From: Mycoplasma mycoides subsp. capri | GTDB taxonomy: Bacteria > Bacillota_I > Bacilli_A > Mycoplasmatales > Mycoplasmataceae | Direction: 5' to 3' | DNA length: 32,000 nucleotides | Assembly: GCF_018389705.1 (NCBI RefSeq) | Contig: NZ_CP065581.1 | Coordinates: forward strand, 30,001-62,000 | Part shown: in pieces, positions 1 through 20,722 of the stretch | Layout of the letters: the number at the start of each line of letters is the position of its first letter | Position numbering within the stretch: the first letter of the stretch is position 1 | The notes under the pieces: generated by a model | What the model was told of the DNA's origin: nothing | The model's input: only the letters and a program-made list of their open reading frames with translations | Databases searched by the model: none | Program-made: the position numbers and the translations under genes

Positions 1-662
1 AAACTACATCCTCTTTTTAAAGGAACTTTATTAATATAGTATTGTTTAACTTCACTTTCTTTAATATTTAGTTTTTTAGCATATTGTGGGATTAAGCTTT
101 CAAACATTTCTGAATCTAAAAGATTACCTAACATCAGTGAGTTAACTCTAATATTATGTTCAGCTAAATCTAAAGCTAGACTTTGAGTTAATCCAACTCC
201 ACCAAATTTAGCTGCTGAATAGCCTGAATTATATTTAGAACCAACTCTTCCTGATTTTGAATTAATTTGAATTATATTACCTTTTGTATTGTTTTTAATC
301 ATTATTTTTGCTGCTTGTTTTGCTGTTAAAAAATATCCATCTAAATTAATTTTTAGACTTGTAATAAAGTCTTGATATTCAAATGAAGTAATTTTTGTTG
401 ATTTTGCTCATCCTGCATTATAAACTAATGTATCAATTGTTTTGTATTTACTTTCAATTTGTTCAAAAACATTAATTACATCTTTTTCATTGGTTAAATC
501 ACATACAAAAGTATCTATTTGTTGATTTTCTTCTTTTAATTGATCAAGCTTTTCTTTATTTAAATCTAAAACAACAACTTGATAATTATTTTTATCAAGA
601 CCAAGTGCTAGAAATTTACCTAAACTTTTAGCTCCACCTGCAACAATAGCAACTTTTTTCAT
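1..662 (-). CDS. srlD: Sorbitol-6-phosphate 2-dehydrogenase-like short-chain dehydrogenase (SDR); the C-terminus runs off the left edge of the window
   Basis: Track ORF 408-662 continues through TGA at 408-410 in the same frame down to position 1. The N-terminus MKKVAIVAGGAKSLGKF is a Rossmann glycine motif. Catalytic YSAAK is present. The stretch IIQINSKSGRVGSKYNSGYSAAKFGGVGLTQSLALDLAE...KVPLKRGC closely matches E. coli SrlD as I remember it. Confidence 0.8.
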
Positions 663-2221
663 TATTTTTCTTCCTTAGTTTTTTGTTGTTTATTTTCAAT
701 TAATTTATATAAATCATCGTATGTATTTTTACCAATAAATTGTTCAACAGGATATATTAAAGCGTTTGGAGCTTTTTGAGACGCAAAATCTTTAAAACTT
801 TTCATAGTTATAACAACATCATATTCATCTTTTAAATCTTTAACTGCTATATTTGATACTTGAATATCATAATTATTGTTATTAACTCATTTTCTAATTA
901 AACCAGCAGCCATTGCAGAAGATCCTACTCCTGCTTCACAACAAACAACAATTTTTTTAATATTGTTATTATTTTTTATTGTTTTTTGATCTGAGTCTTG
1001 TTCATTAAATTCAATACCTTCATCAGTGATTTTAAATCCTTGATTTGATTCAGATTGTAGATTTTTTCTATTTTTTAATAACAATAAAACACTAACTCCA
1101 AATGCTATTAATGTACCAACAACAAATGCTAATAAATTAATTAATAAAGCATGTGTTCCATTAGATAAAGCAATTAGTGAAATTAAACTACCTGGACTTG
1201 GAGTTCCTATAGTTCCTCCTCCTAAATAAGAAGTAATAAATTGTGCACCAACTACACCTAACATTGTAGCTAATAGCATTTTTGGTTTTTTAATAATAAA
1301 TACAAAATATACTTCATGAATTCCACCAATTGTATGAATTAGTGAACTAGCAGCTGCATTATATCTATCTTCTTTTTTAGTAAAAATAATATAAGCTAAT
1401 AATAAGCCTAAACCAGGACCAGGATTTGGATCATATAAGAAAAAGATTGATCTAGGATTTGCAACTCCATTTGATCTTTGAATTTGAATTTCATTATAAC
1501 CAATAGGTCCTAAAACACCATGATTTAAAGCATTATTTAAAAATGATACTTTAATTGGTTCAGTAAAAAAACCTAATAAAGGAGCAACTCATTTATTATC
1601 ACCAAATAATTTAATAATTGAGATCATTACAAAAGTAATACCTCACATTATTCATCCTCAGCTTCAAAATACAGCTAAACCTAATAATATAGCATAAATT
1701 GCTAATCCAAAATTTTTAACTAGCATTTCTAGGCCTGGATTAATTTTATGTAAATATAATTTTTCTACTTTTTTTAAAAATAATGCTGATAAAGGTCCAA
1801 CTATCATAGCACCAATAAATTGGTTTGGTGAACCAGGATGAACCCATTTATCTCCTACTTTTTGTCAAATATAATGACTATAAATATGATCAGTACCAGT
1901 GATTGTTGCAACTATAATAAAAGTTGCAATCATTCCACCTCTTAAACCATAAACTAATCTACCGCCATTAAATGCAATTAATATTGGTAAAAGTCATTTA
2001 ATTCCTGGTTCAACTAATCTTCCTAACATTGGTACATCAAATCAACCTAGTTTTTTATTATGATCAAAATCATATAAAAACATAGCTGTTCAAAGTCCTC
2101 AAGCTAGTAGAACACCAATTGATGGCATAATCATACCAGCCATAAAAGACCCAGTTTTTTGAACTTTAAGTTTAAATTTATTTGCTCATTCTTTGTGAGT
2201 CATCTGAACTTTTGAATTCAT
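662..2221 (-). CDS. mtlA: PTS mannitol-family EIICB component (519 aa)
   Basis: A single code-4 ORF of 1560 nt in frame with track ORF 887-1279. The N-terminal part is a multi-TM EIIC domain. The C-terminal EIIB loop is VVCCEAGVGSSAMAA, the mannitol-type phospho-Cys motif. GGAGG lies upstream of the ATG at 2219-2221. The stop TAA (662-664) overlaps the srlD ATG (660-662). Confidence 0.8.
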
Positions 2222-2256
2222 CAAACATTCGCCTCCTGAAATTATATTAACTCAGG

Positions 2257-2293
2257 TTGTAAATATTTACAATATGTTGTAAATATTTTTACA
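2257..2293 (-). promoter_or_regulatory. Two operator-like palindromes upstream of mtlA
   Basis: TTGTAAATATTTACAA (2257-2272) is a perfect 16-bp palindrome. TTGTAAATATTTTTACA (2277-2293) is near-palindromic. Both lie just upstream of a minus-strand TATAAT (2241-2246). The half-sites TGTAAA/TTTACA resemble LacI/GalR-type or cre operators but lack the central CG. Confidence 0.4.
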
Positions 2294-2304
2294 TCAGAAA
2301 ATTA

Positions 2305-2331
2305 TTAAAATAAAAAAGCGCTTTTGGCGCT
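2305..2331 (-). terminator. Intrinsic terminator candidate downstream of the COG2865 gene and left repeat array
   Basis: The hairpin AGCGC-TTTTG-GCGCT (2317-2331) is followed on the minus strand by a T-run (plus-strand A-run 2312-2317). Confidence 0.45.
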
Positions 2332-2334
2332 GCT

Positions 2335-2450
2335 ATTATATCTTTATTATATCTATATTATATCTTTAGACAAATGTATTATATCAATAATATATCTTAT
2401 TATTTCTTTATTATATCCTTATTATATCTTTAATATATCTTATTATTACG
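2335..2450. repeat. Left array of ~10 tandem units, consensus ATTATATCTTT, period ~11 bp
   Basis: Units read by eye are:
- attatatcttt
- attatatctat
- attatatcttt
- agacaaatgt
- attatatcaat
- aatatatctt
- attatttcttt
- attatatcctt
- attatatcttt
- aatatatctt
- attattacg. Confidence 0.85.
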
Positions 2451-2492
2451 TTTATTTTTTTTAAGATATACAAATGATATATAAAAAAGATA

Positions 2493-3875
2493 TTACTTGT
2501 CAATGCGTACTCAGTAACCTGTTTTATTTGAACCAACTCTTTTTAATATATTCTTTTTAACTAATTTACTAACTGCTCTTTGCATTGTTATTCAAGCCAT
2601 GTCAAACTCATCAGCTAATTCTGCTAATGATGAAATTTTTTCATTTTTATCACAATAGTTTAAAATATTTTCTTCTAAAGAAGTTAAGTTCATATTTTTT
2701 ACTATATTTTTATTTTCAAATTCTATATTTTTACTATTTTCATGAACACTTAAAAATTCATTATCAGTTTTTTTTCTATAAAAACTAAAAGTGAAACCAA
2801 AATTTGAAATATCATATGAGTATTTAATATTATTTTTTTCACATAAACTAAATACAGTTTGAAAACCTGTTCCAAAATTTTCTACAAGGTTATTTCTATA
2901 TAATGTAGTAGCTATAAGTGGATTCATTGGTTTTGATGAAATTTTACCTTCAGCGAAATTTGCTGGAATAGTATTTAATGGAAAATGACCAGGATTATAA
3001 ATTCTTACTTCACTTGGAAAAATAGATATTTCGTTATAATCACCACTAGTTATTCTCATATGAACAAAACTATTAACTACAATTTCACGAATTGCCTTAA
3101 CTGGAATTTCTGGGCGAGGCACTCTTCTTAAATCTTCATAAACATAAACTTGATTTATGTTTTTTAATATGTATTCAATAGATCTATTAATGCATTCAAA
3201 AATATTTCCTTCAAATCTAATATTATCAATTAGAGTTATTCTTTCATCTGTTAAAAATTTTCCTAGCTTTACAGTTATCGGTTTATTTTTTGAAAATAAA
3301 TAATAACCAGCATTATTTAATCTATTGTTTTCCATCAAGTCTAATCTTATTAAGGATTCCTTGACTGAATTAAAAAGATGAGGAAACTTTCCTAAATCAT
3401 ATGCTTTTCTTACATAGTTAATTAAAAGTTGTTCATCAACTTCATCTTCACCATATTTTGTTAATTCTTTTTCTCAAGTTAAGTTAGTAAATTCATTAGT
3501 TTGAAATAGTTTTCTAAGTTCATTATTATCAATAACTTGATCTTGTTCATCAACTCTTGTGTAATATTTTCCATATGCTGAATATGGTCTTTCAGTACCA
3601 TTTACTTCTACAGAAATATAATTTAGGTTGTTTTCTTTTAAAACAACAATATTAGGATATATATTTGGCTTTATATGATTTTTTATTTCATTTGCAATAT
3701 CAGTTGTTGATGTTTTTCCAATTTGTTGACCAACAATTGTTCCATCGTTTTTAACTCCAAAGTAAACAGATCCACGGCCACTTTTATTTAACATTCCACA
3801 CAATGAAATCACAGCTTCTTTTAGTTCTGCTGTACTTTTTTTAAATTCTACTTGTTCACCTTCTCTGCCAAACAT
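2493..3875 (-). CDS. COG2865-type protein (460 aa): N-terminal Schlafen/AlbA_2 domain, central HATPase_c_4-like region, C-terminal winged HTH. Putative regulator, often annotated as RecG-C-terminal-like.
   Basis: Track ORFs 3474-3875 and 2592-3338 are in one frame and are joined by TGA codons at 3471-3473 and 2592-2594; a third in-frame TGA lies at 2511-2513. The true stop is TAA at 2493-2495. The N-terminus is MFGREGEQVEFKKS...GSVYFGVKNDGTIVG, the AlbA_2 signature. The C-terminus LAELADEFDMAWITMQRAVSKLVKKNILKRVGSNKTGYWV is HTH-like. The RBS is AAGGGG. Confidence 0.75.
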
Positions 3876-3917
3876 ATATAACCTACCCCTTAAATTATCT
3901 ATTTTAATAAAGAATTT

Positions 3918-4056
3918 ATTATATCACTATTATATCTTTAATATATCTTTATTATATCATCTATATCTCCATTATATCTTTAATATATCTATAAATAGTC
4001 TTATTATATCTTTATTGTATCTTATTATATCACTATTATATCTTTATTATATCATC
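3918..4056. repeat. Right array of 13 tandem units of the same ATTATATCTTT consensus, in the same orientation as the left array
   Basis: Units begin at 3918, 3929, 3940, 3951, 3962, 3971, 3982, 3993, 4003, 4014, 4024, 4035 and 4046. Segment 3918-3961 is re-duplicated at 4024-4056. On the minus strand each unit reads AAAGATATAAT and so contains TATAAT. Confidence 0.85.
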
Positions 4057-4232
4057 TTAATATTATTAAAAGAATTAGTAAAACATTGCCAAAAAGCCTT
4101 TTTAAAAAATATATAGCATATTTTAAAAGCTTGTGATAAACTAAAATTGCTGGCAACAGCAAACTTTGATATTAATCTTTGTTTTTAAAAGGTTATTATA
4201 CTATTTAGCTAAAGTCTGATTTATTAAACATG

Positions 4233-4262
4233 CAAAAAAGCTGCCTTTATGGCAGCTTTTTG
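4233..4262 (-). terminator. Intrinsic terminator after rpsR (bidirectional shape)
   Basis: The hairpin AGCTGCC-TTTAT-GGCAGCT (4239-4257) is flanked by an A-run and a T-run. Confidence 0.7.
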
Positions 4263-4282
4263 CTTTATATTATTTTATTAAA

Positions 4283-4510
4283 TTATTCAATTACGTATGG
4301 TAATAAAGCCATTTGACGAGCTCTTTTAATTGCTAAAGCTAGTTGTCTTTGATCTTTTGGAGAAGTTCCTGTAATTCTTCTTGGTAAAATTTGACCATTA
4401 GGTGAAATGAATTTTTTTAGTAATTCAATATCTTTGTAGTCGATGTATTTAATATTGTTTTTTTGGAAAAAATTAACTTTTTTTCTTTTTTTAATTTTTT
4501 TAACTTGCAT
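4283..4510 (-). CDS. rpsR: 30S ribosomal protein S18
   Basis: A 75-aa ORF ending ...[32 protein letters not shown], in the conserved rpsF-ssb-rpsR order. Confidence 0.95.
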
Positions 4511-8655: not shown

Positions 8656-8682
8656 TATAAAAAAACAGCTTTAAGCTGTTTT
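8656..8682 (-). terminator. Intrinsic terminator whose hairpin loop is the stop codon of paralogue A
   Basis: The hairpin AACAGCT-TTA-AGCTGTT spans 8664-8680. It is followed on the minus strand by a T-run (plus-strand A-run 8659-8665). Confidence 0.6.
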
Positions 8683-11600
8683 GTAATCAAGAGCAATAAT
8701 TCTATTAATTGATCAATAAGAATTGTTTTTATTTTTTAATAATTTAACTTCAAATTTAGTTCCTAGTTGTTTTGATCTAGTTGTATTTGAAGTTTTTAAT
8801 CTTATTAATTGATAATTAATTTCTTTTTCACTACTATTTAAGATTTTAGTTGATCAAGCATTTTTATCATAATATTTAGTTGCAATTTGATCTTCTTGTT
8901 TTTTAAGTTCTTTATCTTTTTTATCTAGTACAAAATTAAAGACATTTAAAATAGAAACTGCATCTTTTTTATTTTCAATTGATAATTCATAGTTTGGATC
9001 ACTTGATGATAATCCACCAAACAAAGTACCAAATACATAACCTAATGAATCTTTAATATAAGAAGTTTTATCAGGGTTTATTCCAAATAATATATGTAAA
9101 GGAGAATAAGATAAATCGTTTTTTAAATTAGTTCTATTAACAGTATAAGCAATATTTGAACCATTAGTATAAAAATGAATTTTATCTCAATTATAATATG
9201 ATTCTTTTGGTCTATGATTTAAGGCATCTTTTGATACATCACTACTATTATCATGAGTATCAAATCCATAAGCTAATGCTTTTAAAATAGTTTTTCTATT
9301 ATCTTGATCTGAAAGTTTATTGTACATAAAATCATACTTTTGTAACTCTTTTTTATATTCAACACCAACTTTTGTTGTTAAAGCAGTAAGAATTTTTCCA
9401 ATACTTGATATGTTTAATCCAATCGATCTGTTAGGATATTTAGTTAAATAATCATTAAAGTATTTAGCTAAAATTTCTAAAAGTTGAACTACAGTTCTAT
9501 TATTTAAACTTTCTATTTTGAATTGTTTTAATAATAGTTCTGGAAGTGTGATTTTTAGATCTCTTATTTTTGATATGTTTTCAAAATCTTGTATTTTTTT
9601 AGCAAAAGATTGAATTTTAGAATTTCATTTTTCTTTTATTGCTTTTAAATTTTCAAGGTTTTGATTTTTTATTACTAGTCTAATTATAGATAGTAGTGGG
9701 TTGTTATTATCATCAGTTTTTTGAAGTAAAAAATTAATTCATTTATAAACAAAGTCTAGTATTACATTACCATTATATAAACTTTCTGATAAGTTAAATT
9801 TCAATTCAGTTGAACTATTATAAATTTTTAAATGCTCTTGTAAATTATTTAAGTATTTTGAAAATTCTTCTTTTATCTTTTCTTCTTTTTGTATAAATTT
9901 ATTTTTTACAAGAGTTTGATTTACAGATCTAATTTTATTTAATAAAGGATTAATTTTATCTTTTGCAAATGTCTGTAAAATTCATTTTAACGCACTACTT
10001 TTATAAGGCATTTCTAATATGTCATAAACTTTTTCTATATTTAATAACACAACAGAAAAAGGACCAAAGACCTTAACACTTATTAAATTTTTATTCTCTA
10101 AAATATTTTTAAAACTATTAATAACTTCAGATATGTTTTTTACTATAATAGACAAATCTAAATTAATATCATTTGATAAAAAGAAAATTTCTTTTCAGTA
10201 TTTTGAAATATTTAAAGACAAACTATTTAGTGAAATTTGTACATTTTTAATAGTGTTTAAAATAGTTTTTAAAATTCCATTTTCACCAAATAATTCAATT
10301 TTTGCTGTAATACTTGCTAATCTTCATCATTGTCAACCAGCTGATATTTCTAGTGTGTTATTTTTAACTTTAACTTCTCATTCACCTAGTGGTTTACCTA
10401 GTTCATTAACTTTTGTTTTAACAATATTTATTATTTTTTGTTCAATTGTTTTTTTAAGAGATTCATCACTTAATGAATGTTCTATGAATTTTACTAATAT
10501 ATCTAATGAATTTGAAATTGTATTTAGTTTACTTTCAATTCAATTGATTAAATCAAAAATTAAATTACCAGTACCAATATTTGAAAGTATAGAATTTGAA
10601 TCATTAAAAATCTTATTCTTATCAAAACGTCTAAAAATAAAGTCATAAAACCTATTAAAACTATTTTTATCTTTTAAAACTTTTAAAACACCATTTATTA
10701 AAATACTTAAATCTAGTTTGTTTTTAGTTAGTGCTAAAAAATGATTATTGTCTAATTTTTGATCTAATAAAACACTAGGATCTTTTATTTCTTCATGAAC
10801 TGTATAATATAAACCAAAAAAGATTTCAGAATATAAATAAGTTGCTATATAAGGCATAGTTTTATCAATTAATTGCAGTGCTTTTTGTTTTAGTTGTTTT
10901 ATATTATTTGAATCAAAAATAAATTTAATTTTTTCTAAAAGTTTGTCTAAGTTTTTAAGATCTAATTGGCTAGTTGCTAGATCACTTAAAATTTCACTTA
11001 AAGAATCCAAACCTAAATCTGTTAAAACATAATCTAAAGCTTCAGGTATTTTATCTGCTTCTATTTCTTTACTAAATTCTTTTTTATTAGAAATAACAGC
11101 TGCTATTTGATTAATATTTTTAATTAATGCTTGTTGTACAGTTAAATTATTATAATGATCTTTTTCTAGTTGTTTTGGAGTTAAAATTTTTCCTAAATAA
11201 CTAAATAAATCTTTATTATTTTCAATTAGATCAGCAAATTTAGTTAATCCATTTTTATAGTTTATAAAATTAGGATCATCTCTATTATTTATAACTGTAT
11301 TTTGTATAAAAGATAATCCTAAAGAAGCTAAAGAGGGTGCAAAACCGTTTAAAAATTTTTCAAGAGATTTGCTTATACTAAATAAAAAATCAATGTTTTG
11401 TGGAGTAATTTCTCCTTTTGAATTTTCTATATTCTTATATTCATTATTATTTTTATATTGTATTTGTAAATTTTTATCTAATACATTAGTAGATGAACCA
11501 AAATAAGTGTTTCAAAGATCAGAAACAGTATCAGTTGAAGTTGTTTTAGTATTATTAGGTCGTCAAATAAAATCGTTACTAAACTCATCTAATAAAGATT

Positions 11601-11832
11601 TTTTTCCGATCTTTTGATTAAGATAATCTTCATTAAGATTTTCTGTTTCTTTTAAGATTCTAGATTGAACTGCATATGAGCTAGCTTGAACGTAGTTTTG
11701 AACTTTGTTAACTATTTTTTGTTTGTTTGAATCAACATAGCTTTTTGCAAAAATTCCAAAACTACTTAAAAAGATAGCAAAAACAGAAATTATAGCTACT
11801 CATCACTTATTATTTTTAATAAACTTTAACAT
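8671..11832 (-). CDS. Large membrane-anchored hypothetical protein, paralogue A (1053 aa)
   Basis: The 3162-nt code-4 ORF is in frame with track ORF 10540-11010. The ATG at 11830-11832 is preceded by AAAGGTGA. The N-terminal anchor is KWWVAIISVFAIFLSSFGIFA, with no lipobox Cys. The rest looks Lys/Asn/Leu-rich and helical. I verified several stretches codon by codon, but not the whole ORF. Confidence 0.7.
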
Positions 11833-11942
11833 TTGGTTCACCTTTAATTAATTACAACCAACAAACACAAATAAATAGAATTTATCTATTGACATTACTA
11901 CTATGTTTAATATAACACAATTTTAATTTTTTAAAAGTTTAT

Positions 11943-11966
11943 AAAAAAACAGCTTTAAGCTGTTTT
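11943..11966 (-). terminator. Intrinsic terminator with the stop codon in its loop, copy for paralogue B
   Basis: The hairpin is identical to the paralogue A copy: AACAGCT-TTA-AGCTGTT at 11948-11964, with an adjacent A/T-run. Confidence 0.6.
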
Positions 11967-14900
11967 GTAATCAAGAGCAATAATTTTATTAATTGTTCAA
12001 TAAGAATTATTTTTATTTTTTAATAGTTTAACTTCAAATTTAGTTCCTAATTGTTTTGATTTAGTTGTATTTGAAGTTTTTAATCTTTTTAACTGATAAT
12101 TAATCTCATTTTCATTACTATTTAAGATTTTAGTTGATCAAGCACTTTTATCATAATATTGAGTTGCAATTTGATCTTCTTGGTTTTTAAGTTGCTTATC
12201 TTTTTTATCTAAAACATAATTAAAGACATTTAAAATTGAAGTTGCATCAGTTTTATTTTCAATTGAAAGATTATAATTTGGATCACTTGCTGATAATCCA
12301 CCAAATAAAGTACCAAATACATACCCTAATGAATCTTTAATATAAGAAGTTTTATCAACATCAATACCTAATAAAATATGTAAAGGAGAATATGATTGAT
12401 CTTCTTTTAAATTAGTTCTATTAATAGTAAATGGTTTATCTGAACCATTAATATAAAAATCAATTTTATCTCAATTATAATAAGATTCACTAGGTCTAAT
12501 ATTACTAATATTAACTATATTATCACTATAATTATCATGAGTATCAAATCCATAAGCTAGTGCTTTTAAAAGAGTTTTTGATTTATCTTTTAATGGATCT
12601 TTATCATATAAAAAGTTTTTATTTTTATTTTTAGTATTATATTCAACACTAACTTTTATTGTTAAAGCAGTTAATATTTTTCCAATACTTGATATGTTTA
12701 ATCCAATTACTTTATTAGAATTTATAGATAAATAATCATTAAAGTATGTTGTTAAAGTTTGTATAAGTTGATAGATTGTTTGAGTGTTTAAGCTTTCTAA
12801 TCCAAATTGTTTTAAGAAATCTTCAGGTAAATTAATTTTGATATTTTTAATTTTTGTGATGTTTTCAAAGTCTTTAATTTTATTTGCAAGTTCAGATATT
12901 TTAGTAGTTCACTTATTTTTAGTTTGTTCTAGTTTTTCAAGTTTTTCATCTTTAAAAATAGCTCTTAAAATAGGTAATATTGAGTTGTCTTCTTTATTAA
13001 TGTCTTTTGTTAAAAACTCAATTCATTTTAAAGCAAAATCAGAAATTATATTTCCTTCATAAAGACTATTTAATAAGTTGAAATCAGTGATTTCTATTTC
13101 TTCATATTTTTTAATATATTTAGATAGATTTTCTAAATATTGTGGGAATTGCTTTTTTAGTTTTGTTGGATCAGTTATGAAATTATATGTTTTTAAAGAT
13201 TCTAAAAAAGTTTTAAACTTTTCTACTGCTGGTTTTATATCATTTTCAGCCCTTTTATAAACTAGTCCATTTAAAAATTCTTTATTATAAGGAAGAGTTA
13301 AAAAATCATATATAGTTTTTATTTCTACATCTGGTTTTCCAAAAGGTCATAGGGTTGTTAGAGTTTGAGCAATTGTTATATGTATATTCTTATTATCTTT
13401 TAGTAAAGCATCTATATCATTTATTAATTTTTGTAATAAAGACACTGATAGTTTATCTGAGCTTTTTAAATAAAATGTATTTTTTATATATTTAAAAAAT
13501 CAGTCAGATAAATAATCTACGAAGTTATTTAATGATTTTAAAATATTAATTACTTGACTCAATAATCCTGTTTGTCCAAATAAATTAGCTTTTAAATATA
13601 AAGGGGTTCTGATTCCTAAAAAACTAAGAGATATTTCAATTGATTCAGATTTGAATTCAACTTTTCATGTCCCACTATCAATTTTTGGTAATTTTTCTTT
13701 TATGAAACTAACTATTTTTTCTTGTATAGTTTTTATAATATTAGAATCATTTAAAGCTATTTCAGCAAATCTAATTAATATGTTTAATCCATTTGAAAAA
13801 CCATTTAGTTTGTCTTCTAATCAATTTAGTAAGTCATAAATTAAATTACCAGTTCCTTTATTTGAACTTATATTATTTAAATTATTAAAAATTTTATTTT
13901 CATCAAATCTTTTAAAAATAAAATTATAAAATCTTTCAAATCCTTTTTTATCCTTTAATATTACTTCTATTCCATTTAATAAAATACCTAAGTCTAATTT
14001 ATTATTAGTTAAAGCTAAAAATTTATTACTATCAACTTTTTGAACTAACAATTCATTAGGGTCTTTAATATGTTGGTTAGCTGCATAATACAAACCAAAA
14101 AAGATTTCAGAATATAAATAGGTTGCTAAGTGTGGTGTAATTCTATCTAATAGTTCTAAAGCTTTTGTTTTTAAATTCTCAAAGTTTTTTAACGTGAATA
14201 TGTTTTTAATTTTATTAAAAGTCTGTGTTAAATTTGTAGAACCATTTTGACTATTAATTAATTCACCAATAATTTCACTTAAAGAATCTAGACCAAGTTC
14301 TGTTAGAAATTTGTCTAAAGCTTCAGGTATTTTATCTTCTTTTACTTCTTTACTAAATTGATGATCATTTGAAATAGCAGCTGCTATTTGATTAATATTT
14401 TTAATTAAAGCTTGTTGCACAGTTAAATTATTATAATAATCTTTTTCTAGTTGTTTTGGAGTTAAAATTTTTCCTAAATAACTAAATAAATTTTTATTGT
14501 TTTCAATTACATCAGCAAACTTATTTAATCCATCTTTATAGTTTTTAAAGTTAGGTTTTTCTCTATTATTTAAAACTGTATTTTGTATAAAAGACAATCC
14601 TAAAGAAGCTAAAGAGGGTGCAAAACCATTTAAAAATTTTTCAAGAGATTTGCTTATACTAAATAAAAAGTCAATATTTTGAGGAGTAATTTCTCCTTTT
14701 GAATTTTCTATATTTTTATATTCATTATTATTTTTATATTGTATTTGTAAATTTTTATCTAATACATTATTAGGTGAACCAAAATAAGTATTTCAAAGAT
14801 CAGAAATAGTATCAATTGAAGTTGTTTTAGTATTATTAGGTCGTCAAATAAAATCATTATTAAACTCATCTGATAAAGATTTTTTTCCGATCTTTTGATT

Positions 14901-15113
14901 AAGATAATCTTCATTAAGATTTTCTGTTTCTTTTAAGATTCTAGATTGAACTGCATATGAGCTAGCTTGGACATAATTTTGAACTTTGTTAACTATTTTT
15001 TGTTTGCTTGAATCAACATAGCTTTTTGCAAAAATTCCAAAACTACTTAAAAAGATGGCAAAAACAGAAATTATAGCTACTCATCACTTATTATTTTTAA
15101 TAAACTTTAACAT
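11955..15113 (-). CDS. Large membrane-anchored hypothetical protein, paralogue B (1052 aa)
   Basis: The 3159-nt code-4 ORF is in frame with track ORF 13821-14597. Its N-terminus (MLKFIKNNKWWVAIISVFAIFLSSFGIFAKSYVDS) and C-terminus (...ALDYKTA) are the same as in paralogue A. Confidence 0.7.
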
Positions 15114-20692: not shown

Positions 20693-20722
20693 TTGAAAAA
20701 AAAAAAAAAAAAATAATATAAT
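20693..20722 (+). promoter_or_regulatory. Promoter whose -35/-10 spacer is a poly(A) tract
   Basis: TTGAAA (20693-20698) and TATAAT (20717-20722) are separated by 18 nt. An uninterrupted run of 18 A spans 20696-20713. AGGAG lies before the ATG at 20773. Confidence 0.6.

Follow-up and report, generated by a model that had tools for sequence, protein, structure and literature searches.

A short direct-repeat array accompanies a family of prokaryotic Schlafen genes across bacteria, a conserved co-occurrence that we describe here from Mycoplasma mycoides subsp. capri. The sequence analyzed is a 32,000-nucleotide (nt) stretch of contig NZ_CP065581.1 (positions 30,001 to 62,000; here, the window), in which a gene encoding a 460-amino-acid (aa) protein with Schlafen, ATPase and C-terminal winged helix-turn-helix (wHTH) domains is flanked by two arrays of approximately 11-bp repeats. 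Orthologs of this gene in unrelated surroundings are preceded by similar arrays, and many carry a further array in frame within the coding sequence. From these sequence comparisons, we consider it fairly probable that the encoded wHTH domain uses the arrays as its operator sites, one of them overlapping the promoter and an auxiliary one lying within or downstream of the gene.

Direct-repeat arrays accompany the Schlafen gene across bacteria

G+C makes up 24 % of the window, in which genetic code 4 applies. The gene lies between a phosphotransferase system (PTS) EIICB gene on one side and rpsR-ssb-rpsF on the other, and the following elements, including the arrays here called P and D, define the locus.

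3918..4056, minus strand: upstream array P, about 13 units of about 11 bp, reading AAAGATATAAT on the gene strand
2335..2450, minus strand: downstream array D, about 10 units that share the consensus and orientation of P
2493..3875, minus strand: Schlafen gene, a 460-aa open reading frame (ORF) under translation table 4, in which in-frame TGA is tryptophan
2317..2331, minus strand: intrinsic terminator from a terminator scan, AGCGCCAAAAGCGCT followed by a T-run, closing the gene and the downstream array

The original prediction held that two arrays of one consensus and one orientation, with about 10 and 13 units, flank this gene. Tandem Repeats Finder, a position weight matrix (PWM) of the unit and the ORF call agree with it: D is reported at 2334-2446 (period 11, 10.5 copies, 74 % matches) and P at 3915-4053 (period 11, 13.0 copies, 73 % matches), and both read ATTATATCTTT on the plus strand, equivalent to AAAGATATAAT on the minus strand of the gene. 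In the 32-kb window, 14 of the 16 plus-strand occurrences of ATTATATC fall inside P and D, and all five matches to a three-unit pattern do so as well, with 0.00 expected from 100 shuffles. The unit PWM has 22 matches on the gene strand (19 of them in P or D) and 0 on the other, and none within the Mycoplasma Schlafen gene. Neither Tandem Repeats Finder, motif counts nor the PWM found a further 11-mer array in the window. The steps between units are mostly 11 bp, with some of 10 and 9 bp, giving means of 10.7-10.8 bp (10.6 bp in Mycoplasma capricolum). The last strong unit of P stops 42 nt before the ATG, and D is located between the stop codon and the terminator at 2331..2317 on the minus strand, where it had been predicted to lie. 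The predicted higher-order duplication within the upstream array was also found (3916-3960 versus 4022-4066, 87 % over 45 nt).

We compared this locus with 80 metagenomic loci (L133-L212) carrying orthologs of 34-51 % identity. Their 135 flanking ORFs form 105 clusters, the neighborhoods being unrelated, and the G+C content of the loci ranges from 26 to 53 %. Orthologs that never have such arrays would have spoken against the original prediction. By a fixed criterion, an array with a lag of 12 precedes the gene in 76 % of 72 upstream windows, compared with 1.1 % of 661 control windows; the signal is particular to this lag, the others between 9 and 15 reaching 7 % at most. Tandem Repeats Finder and motif-free autocorrelation describe these arrays as having 2-7 units, a period of 12 bp and a consensus of approximately AAATGATAAGAT, and as ending 12-45 nt from the start codon.

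The closest relatives of the Mycoplasma gene bridge the two unit lengths. In L134, AAATGATATAAT (12 bp) alternates with AATGATAGAAT (11 bp), and the units of L163, L165 and L167 read AAATGATACAAT; the Mycoplasma 11-mer is therefore best understood as the 12-bp family unit minus one base, in expanded form. The helical phasing proposed in the original prediction is borne out by the mean spacing of approximately 10.7 bp in the mycoides cluster, but the family period is 12 bp, so phasing is specific to that lineage. Large expansions like those of the mycoides cluster arise independently elsewhere, as in L154, where the upstream array (88-355) extends over 268 bp as 3.9 copies of a 69-bp higher-order repeat. 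Downstream arrays between the stop codon and a terminator recur in L192/L197 and L168 and are present in about 10 % of loci. In L189, a second Schlafen/AlbA_2 paralog (gene from 3440) directly follows the ortholog and has its own, different array at 3336-3376 (ATAGTGAAGTT, 3.9 copies), beyond which that motif recurs in inverted orientation. Viral contigs yielded a single distant homolog, which uses code 4.

We find it highly improbable that the arrays are non-functional minisatellites kept alike by slippage and gene conversion, or recombination substrates at cassette borders that move or swap the gene or its wHTH module. Such an origin would account for the relationship between P and D, which are block paralogs because D block 2337-2428 and P block 3962-4053 align without gaps at 79 % over 92 nt, compared with 61-65 % in other registers. 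It would also fit the higher-order repeats of M. capricolum (53 bp) and L154, the very diverse gene contexts, the absence of the gene from outgroups and the 8 nt of flank common to the downstream and upstream arrays of L192. However, neutral repeats of 24-60 bp would not persist at the same distance from the start codon across 34-51 % identity, the codon bias of the internal array described below is uniform across loci, a downstream array in only about 10 % of loci means that paired borders are not general, and deletion between direct repeats would be irreversible. The last point also led us to reject a deletion or inversion switch, since the arrays of most loci are directly oriented. The outgroups, Mycoplasma sp. 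HU2014 and Mesoplasma syrphidae, have rplI-dnaB after rpsR and neither the gene nor an array there; the gene and its arrays thus arrived or arose together. The earlier proposal that the arrays mark the boundaries of an inserted cassette holds to that extent, although the arrays appear to be parts of the control region of the gene rather than the borders of an insertion.

The in-frame array and the protein that carries it

Alignment of the C termini of the orthologs revealed that the linker preceding the wHTH domain is itself a tandem tetrapeptide repeat, in which AAT-GAT-AAG-ATA, encoding NDKI, is the upstream 12-mer. The corresponding parts of the Mycoplasma protein, as given by its AlphaFold 2 (AF2) model, are as follows.

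2694..2762, minus strand: disordered linker, residues 372-394, with a predicted local distance difference test (pLDDT) score below 50
2505..2681, minus strand: C-terminal wHTH domain, residues 399-457, from AF2 secondary structure

An in-frame internal array with a 12-bp period was present in 50 of 74 loci, at residues ~365-387, a position that matches the disordered residues 372-394 of the Mycoplasma model. By the fixed criterion, 68 % of loci score at lag 12, compared with 1-14 % at other in-frame lags. Within a locus, the linker follows the upstream unit: upstream ACA goes with NDTI in the linker, TCG with NDSI, AGA with NDRI and AAAGTA with NDKV. The internal consensus matches the upstream consensus of its own locus at 11.5 of 12 positions overall. 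With one representative per class, the value is 10.8, compared with 9.3 ± 0.3 for permuted pairs, and 0 of 20,000 permutations reach the observed identity.

Codon choice within the repeat is skewed relative to the rest of the same genes, with ATA used for 99 % of isoleucines (27 % elsewhere), AAG for 90 % of lysines (27 %), AAT for 96 % of asparagines (69 %) and GAT for 93 % of aspartates (73 %), which indicates that the constraint acts on the nucleotides. This bias is uniform across loci and extends beyond single ones. The more distant homologs from Bacteroidota, with 26 % identity, have a 12-bp in-frame linker array as well, encoding (NERV)4 and (TTVK)n, and it is the only array that they retain.

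The homolog of Mycoplasmopsis arginini bears on the nature of the conserved element. Its upstream TAGTGACA units start at 1409, 1421 and 1433 on the plus strand, whereas the internal units, at 2610, 2622, 2634 and 2646, are on the minus strand, both with exact 12-bp spacing. Because the internal array is inverted relative to the upstream one, the conserved object is a double-stranded DNA motif that can take either orientation; neither an RNA motif nor a peptide requirement would give such an inversion. The records are L219 and L220 ('plasmids' 3 and 2 of M. arginini NCTC10129). The gene is embedded in a type I restriction-modification locus, where hsdS lies upstream in divergent orientation and hsdR follows after 13 nt. 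A further copy, in another record, is in fragments, with the wHTH annotated as a small regulator of its own.

In M. mycoides, the linker retains just a faint ENxKNI/ENKNI duplication. The internal array has decayed here, and its role may have passed to D. We also considered an internal promoter producing a wHTH-only isoform and rejected it, as no conserved start codon or ribosome-binding site (RBS) follows the linker arrays.

The 460-aa protein is a prokaryotic Schlafen of the 'pSlfn-HisKinase-HTH' composition, with all three defining domains present. Two of these precede the linker.

3534..3863, minus strand: SLFN_AlbA_2 domain, residues 5-114 (Pfam PF04326, 60.6 bits, cut-off 25.3)
2823..3032, minus strand: HATPase_c_4 domain of the GHKL (histidine-kinase-like ATPase) type, residues 282-351 (Pfam PF13749, 41.7 bits, cut-off 26)

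The AF2 model has a mean pLDDT of 80.8, and its nearest structural neighbor over the whole protein is the uncharacterized DIP2311 (3LMM, E = 4e-20). Structure comparison relates the N-terminal domain to the N-domains of SLFN12, SLFN13, SLFN5 and SLFN11 and the middle domain to the catalytic (ATPase) domains of histidine kinases. In the wHTH domain, which superposes on MecI (1SD6) with a root mean square deviation of 1.9 Å over 69 residues, the model places the recognition helix at ~428-440 (...WITMQRAVSKL...) and a beta-wing at 444-457. Profile matches for this domain are weak (GntR/MarR/SarA-type), and a PDB sequence search gave a single weak match to an Lrp/AsnC-type wHTH. The closest proteins are those of M. 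mycoides (98 % identity) and M. capricolum (79 %), followed at ~52 % by proteins of uncultured Firmicutes. Near the N terminus, E5-GEQV-E10-F-K12 has the form Ex4(E/D)xK, and E5, E10 and K12 are invariant in 34 homologs; this is the catalytic motif of Schlafen RNases (PMC13056530). Recent work has established prokaryotic Schlafens as widespread antiviral RNases associated with defense islands, and pSlfn-HisKinase-HTH is their second most common form, at 19.2 % of 5,930 proteins (PMC13056530, Nat Microbiol 2026). That study did not test this composition and does not mention associated DNA repeats (PMC13056530). The Mycoplasma protein has the same domain order (Slfn/AlbA_2, GHKL-type ATPase, HTH), and the location of the M. 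arginini gene in a type I restriction-modification locus agrees with the defense-island association. The M. mycoides gene, between rpsR and a sugar-PTS operon, has no obvious defense island around it, and PADLOC gave only weak partial matches at the locus.

Promoter overlap, strain variation and the putative binder

We next consider where the upstream arrays lie relative to predicted promoters. With a promoter PWM applied within 220 nt, 39 of 57 loci have their top-scoring σ70-type promoter over the array or directly against it. In the usual layout, a TTGnnA lies approximately 5 nt before the array, the first unit forms the 17-nt spacer and the second unit supplies an extended -10 (tgaTAAGAT, tgaTACAAT or tgaTATAAT); examples are TTGACA-17-TACAAT in L144 and TTGATA-17-TATAAT in L140. 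Arrays of two units do not extend beyond the predicted core promoter. A second clade (L199, L208 and M. arginini) has GTGACA within its unit, the final copy being -35-like and located 17 nt before TATAAT. As far as predicted promoters go, this placement over the core promoter is the geometry of an operator. The corresponding elements of the Mycoplasma gene, both read from the sequence, are the following.

3882..3891, minus strand: Shine-Dalgarno-like AAGGGGTAGG, 6 nt before the ATG and kept in all strains
3894..3901, minus strand: -10-like TAGATAAT, the one closest to the start codon and a candidate functional -10

The original prediction described the upstream array as a ladder of -10-like boxes. 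The Mycoplasma units do carry TATAAT, but the ladder is best read as a by-product of an operator lying on an extended -10 or on a -35-like TGACA; amplification by slippage of an operator that coincided with the promoter hexamer would place a -10 hexamer in every unit. The main-class 12-bp unit can also be written as a mini-ORF, ATG-ATA-AGA-TAA, with both the ATG and the TAA in the conserved part of the unit. We judged this a coincidence, since the mini-ORF is absent from the TGACA clade and from Mycoplasma and two-unit arrays are inside the promoter.

One alternative is a promoter-strength device without a dedicated binder, in which RNA polymerase is recruited by repeated -10 (or -35) elements, and expression is tuned or phase-varied as slippage changes their number. 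In its favor, main-class units are extended -10-like (tgaTAnnAT), Mollicute promoters rely mainly on the -10, and copy number differs between strains (~6-11 at a loose threshold) and species (~33). We nevertheless think it quite improbable, because it leaves the in-frame internal array and its nucleotide-level constraint unexplained. It also fails to explain the inverted orientation in M. arginini, the downstream arrays that abut terminators and the divergence of the unit with protein clade despite a universal σ70 consensus.

A second alternative, which we hold to be distinctly unlikely, places the element at the RNA level, with transcribed repeats serving as binding or cleavage sites for the Schlafen RNase or the wHTH in post-transcriptional autoregulation or as a type III toxin-antitoxin-like RNA. 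The N-terminal domain does have a Schlafen-type RNase fold with an intact catalytic motif, internal arrays are always transcribed, downstream arrays are in the 3' untranslated region before the terminator (in Mycoplasma, L192/L197 and L168), distal units of longer upstream arrays may follow the predicted start, and a tandem repeat before a nuclease gene recalls ToxIN. Two observations argue most strongly against this possibility: two-unit arrays are inside the predicted core promoter and would hence go untranscribed, and the internal array of M. arginini, as the reverse complement of the upstream one, would yield a different RNA. In addition, the units are 11-12 nt rather than ~36, the orthologs have no terminator between array and gene, and there is no Rfam match. 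Rfam searches of 2200-4300 in the window gave only sub-threshold matches, mostly over the rpsR terminator hairpin and otherwise isolated and low-scoring. The further suggestion that the arrays are intrinsically curved DNA was not upheld. A wedge model puts P and D at the 26th-56th percentile of the window, with end-to-end/contour ratios of 0.886-0.928 (window median, 0.921; 1st percentile, 0.749), and thus shows no elevated curvature.

The encoded wHTH is the proposed binder of the arrays, and across 13 clades the unit classes change with the motif in the recognition helix, as listed here.

Unit core TAAGAT / TAGAAT: recognition helix ...T-x-x-R-H
Unit core TACAAT: recognition helix ...R-D
Unit core T(C/T)CGAT: recognition helix ...Q-R-A
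Unit core GTGACA / TGTCGT: recognition helix R-T-[IV]-Q-R
Unit core GATATAAT (M. mycoides): recognition helix ...QRA
Unit core GCTATAAT (M. capricolum): recognition helix ...QRT

Instead, the arrays could be operator or architectural sites for some other protein of the host, for instance a nucleoid protein or a further regulator. The link between the wHTH and the repeats is comparative, and AT-rich phased repeats are typical targets of nucleoid-associated proteins. We consider a foreign binder very unlikely, because the arrays travel with the gene through unrelated hosts (Mycoplasmatota, and uncultured gut and rumen contigs with Bacillota as their nearest named relatives) and neighborhoods at 26-53 % G+C; moreover, the more distant Bacteroidota homologs keep only the in-frame linker array, the unit changes with protein clade, and paralogs have arrays of their own.

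Variation within the mycoides cluster gives a closer view of how gene and arrays evolve. The gene lies between rpsR and the PTS-EIICB/mannitol operon, with both P and D present, in 12 of 12 loci. The upstream intergenic region measures 341-408 bp across strains, one strain being without a five-unit block, and P has ~6-11 units at the loose PWM threshold and 5-10 at the strict one. In M. capricolum, the upstream array has reached ~33 units by spacing (28 at the loose threshold) and consists of a 53-bp higher-order repeat of five units of 10.6 bp each with the core changed to GCTATAAT. D is constant in length between strains and changes by substitution. In CP065584.1 only (L001 11550-13040 = L127 8203-9614), an insertion sequence with an rve-type transposase lies within the terminator hairpin right after D and parts the Schlafen gene from the PTS operon. 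In CP011263.1 and CP144021.1 (L125 6570-7949 and L128 6582-7961), the gene is broken into three fragments of 163, 203 and 86 aa, and the arrays of these two genomes differ by exactly one repeat unit. Erosion of the arrays is greatest here: 2-3 and 4 strong units remain, compared with 5-10 and 6-9 where the gene is intact, and array identity is 74-76 % compared with 89.5 % for the gene. Such erosion would be in line with the operator reading, but it is suggestive only, as the arrays evolve fast in any case.

Taken together, these comparisons lend support to the proposal, made in the original prediction, that the arrays are a platform for cooperative binding and autoregulation by the adjacent wHTH: orthologs keep the arrays in unrelated contexts, the unit changes with clade, and the motif recurs within the gene. 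In the mechanism we favor, the arrays would be cognate double-stranded DNA sites of the gene's own C-terminal wHTH, and several protomers would bind the direct repeats head to tail. Since the promoter-side array overlaps the core promoter hexamer, its occupancy would shut off transcription (negative autoregulation) and keep silent what is probably a toxic Schlafen RNase. The second array, which is in-frame linker DNA in most relatives and closely follows the stop codon in the mycoides cluster, would act as an auxiliary operator, probably through bridging or looping by an oligomeric protein. The mycoides cluster would then be derived, its unit having arisen from the 12-bp aaaTGATAtAAT by loss of one base to give aaaGATATAAT; its arrays would have grown by slippage to ~13 and 10 units (~33 in M. 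capricolum) while the internal copy decayed.

Several observations weigh against this operator model. The evidence for it is wholly comparative, and we infer from it the identity of the binder, repression and looping alike. The co-variation of unit and recognition helix is suggestive, being confounded by phylogeny (13 clades with few independent changes) and following no simple code. About one-quarter of the orthologs have no upstream array by the fixed criterion, one of them (L142) having inverted repeats in its place. Where an array has four units, the promoter prediction that scores best lies on the first two, so that the distal units could be transcribed, and in the AT-rich Mycoplasma region a σ70 scan found full -35/-10 matches not to be enriched over shuffles. 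Finally, M. capricolum has an intact gene, yet its D is degenerate and its P is dominated by a variant core, which is why the erosion seen in the pseudogene strains is not decisive.

A role beyond that of an operator, which we regard as unlikely, is that the arrays and the linker copy form a docking scaffold that stores the Schlafen RNase-ATPase as an inactive oligomer, tethered to the DNA and extending over its own gene. Signals linked to infection would free and activate the protein, either by way of the GHKL ATPase or when DNA integrity or supercoiling is lost, and the stored dose would be set by copy number, which is 2-5 units in most bacteria and 10-33 in the mycoides cluster.

Related systems, neighboring features and significance

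Autoregulatory direct-repeat operators, auxiliary intragenic operators and cooperative complexes of wHTH proteins on repeats are all known kinds of element. In the lac and gal systems, O2 in lacZ and OI in galE are intragenic auxiliary operators that take part in repressor-mediated looping. The arrangement described here resembles them in having a putative primary operator over the promoter and a second copy some hundreds of bp away in transcribed or coding sequence. It differs in that the sites are tandem direct-repeat arrays rather than single palindromes and in that the internal site is in the proposed regulator's own gene, accommodated as a tetrapeptide-repeat linker; looping in our case is a proposal. 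In plasmid R1, parC consists of ten 11-bp direct repeats around the par promoter that are bound by ParR, and the wHTH protein TubR binds the 12-bp repeats of tubC. As here, direct repeats of 11-12 bp lie upstream of the gene for the binder (here a putative one), and in those systems they serve both as an autoregulatory operator and in a multiprotomer complex. However, no ParA, ParM or TubZ gene was found in the neighborhood in the window or in the ortholog flanks, and the present arrays are chromosomal, have an internal in-frame copy and would be bound by one domain of a large nuclease-ATPase.

Plasmid iterons, of 17-22 bp, belong to replication origins with an AT-rich unwinding element and DnaA boxes; like the Schlafen arrays as we read them, they are direct repeats recognized by a wHTH protein, the Rep initiator, whose gene is autoregulated. 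The Schlafen arrays have 11-12-bp units and no rep gene or origin context, and they are chromosomal and syntenic in 12 genomes. ToxIN and CptIN have transcribed ToxI-type units of ~36 nt and a terminator between the array and the toxin gene. Tandem direct repeats directly upstream of a nuclease gene are common to both, but units of 11-12 bp that cover the promoter, abut the RBS and occur in either orientation set the Schlafen arrays apart from type III toxin-antitoxin loci. MecI and BlaI, which offer the closest solved fold for the C-terminal wHTH, are autoregulated repressors, as the Schlafen protein would be; they are small dimers on palindromic operators, whereas the Schlafen wHTH is joined to effector domains and would act on direct repeats. 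The original prediction knew of no described system pairing this protein family with such arrays, and our literature search likewise found none. It returned no description of such repeats with this abundant Schlafen class and none of an auxiliary operator encoded in frame as a tetrapeptide-repeat linker that co-varies with a promoter array.

Several other features were noted near the locus and elsewhere in the window. Between the rpsR terminator and P, the block at 4060-4235 is 99.5, 97.4 and 92.1 % identical between strains (97.8, 96.6 and 89.5 % for the Schlafen gene) and is recognizable in M. capricolum. Its minus strand reads TAGTATAAT, followed ~30 nt later by a terminator-like hairpin, TTGCTGTTGCCAGCAA (4147-4162), and a T-run; it has no Rfam match and may represent a second terminator or a ~50-nt small RNA. 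At 2257-2294, just upstream of the PTS EIICB gene ('mtlA'), two tandem copies of the palindrome TTGTAAATATTTACAA are kept in all strains and in M. capricolum and are probably the operator of the RpiR-type (HTH_6/SIS) regulator of the same operon. A 23-bp tandem repeat, ACAAATTTGGTAAACTTTTAATA, at 24596-24655 (2.6 copies, Tandem Repeats Finder score 92) lies ~65 nt upstream of gene 24722-26008, which encodes AAA_14 and DUF4143 domains and is thus another ATPase gene behind direct repeats. An 18-base poly(A) tract at 20696-20713, a homopolymer of the kind that phase-varies mycoplasma surface proteins, is intergenic and precedes a gene at 20773 whose product has a signal-peptide-like N terminus (MKKLLAMLSISSSIFLITTG...). 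At 8671-11841 and 11955-15113 are tandem paralogs of ~1050 aa with near-identical N termini, whose counterparts in related strains carry Pfam Mycopla_NOT_gsn.

In the genome collection, the three-unit pattern occurs in at least 120 loci scattered over unrelated taxa, with no Mollicutes among the matches listed. Those matches include long arrays on a GATATAAT or GCTATATT core with a 10-11-bp period (L053 7499-7800, L120 ~430-720, L074 4035-4090 and L024 ~330-630), in hosts that include Bacteroidaceae, Bartonella clarridgeiae and a gammaproteobacterial metagenome-assembled genome. They have no adjoining Schlafen homolog, and as they were selected by the pattern we draw no inference from them. 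In a Parvibaculaceae locus (L031), a TGGATATAAT array at 1565-1690 lies directly upstream of, and in the same orientation as, gene 484-1545 (minus strand), which encodes a Fic domain and a C-terminal wHTH. This second fusion of an effector to a wHTH with promoter direct repeats hints at a more general design.

The cis-element described here offers a testable handle on a Schlafen class without known function or regulation. It indicates the probable target of the HTH domain, how a potentially toxic nuclease may be kept silent and where to mutate. The in-frame array is under dual constraint, as a protein linker (repeats such as NDKI, NDTI, NDSI or NERV) and as a DNA motif, which bears on annotation, codon-usage analyses and synthetic recoding. 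Were the docking scaffold to prove true, a single stretch of DNA would have to encode the linker and also serve as the binding site, an overlap of coding and regulatory information of a new kind, conserved between bacterial phyla. With regard to the M. mycoides-derived minimal-cell chassis, the arrays constitute a strain-variable repeat locus with a likely regulatory role, and more broadly they are of interest for research on bacterial immunity and overlapping codes.

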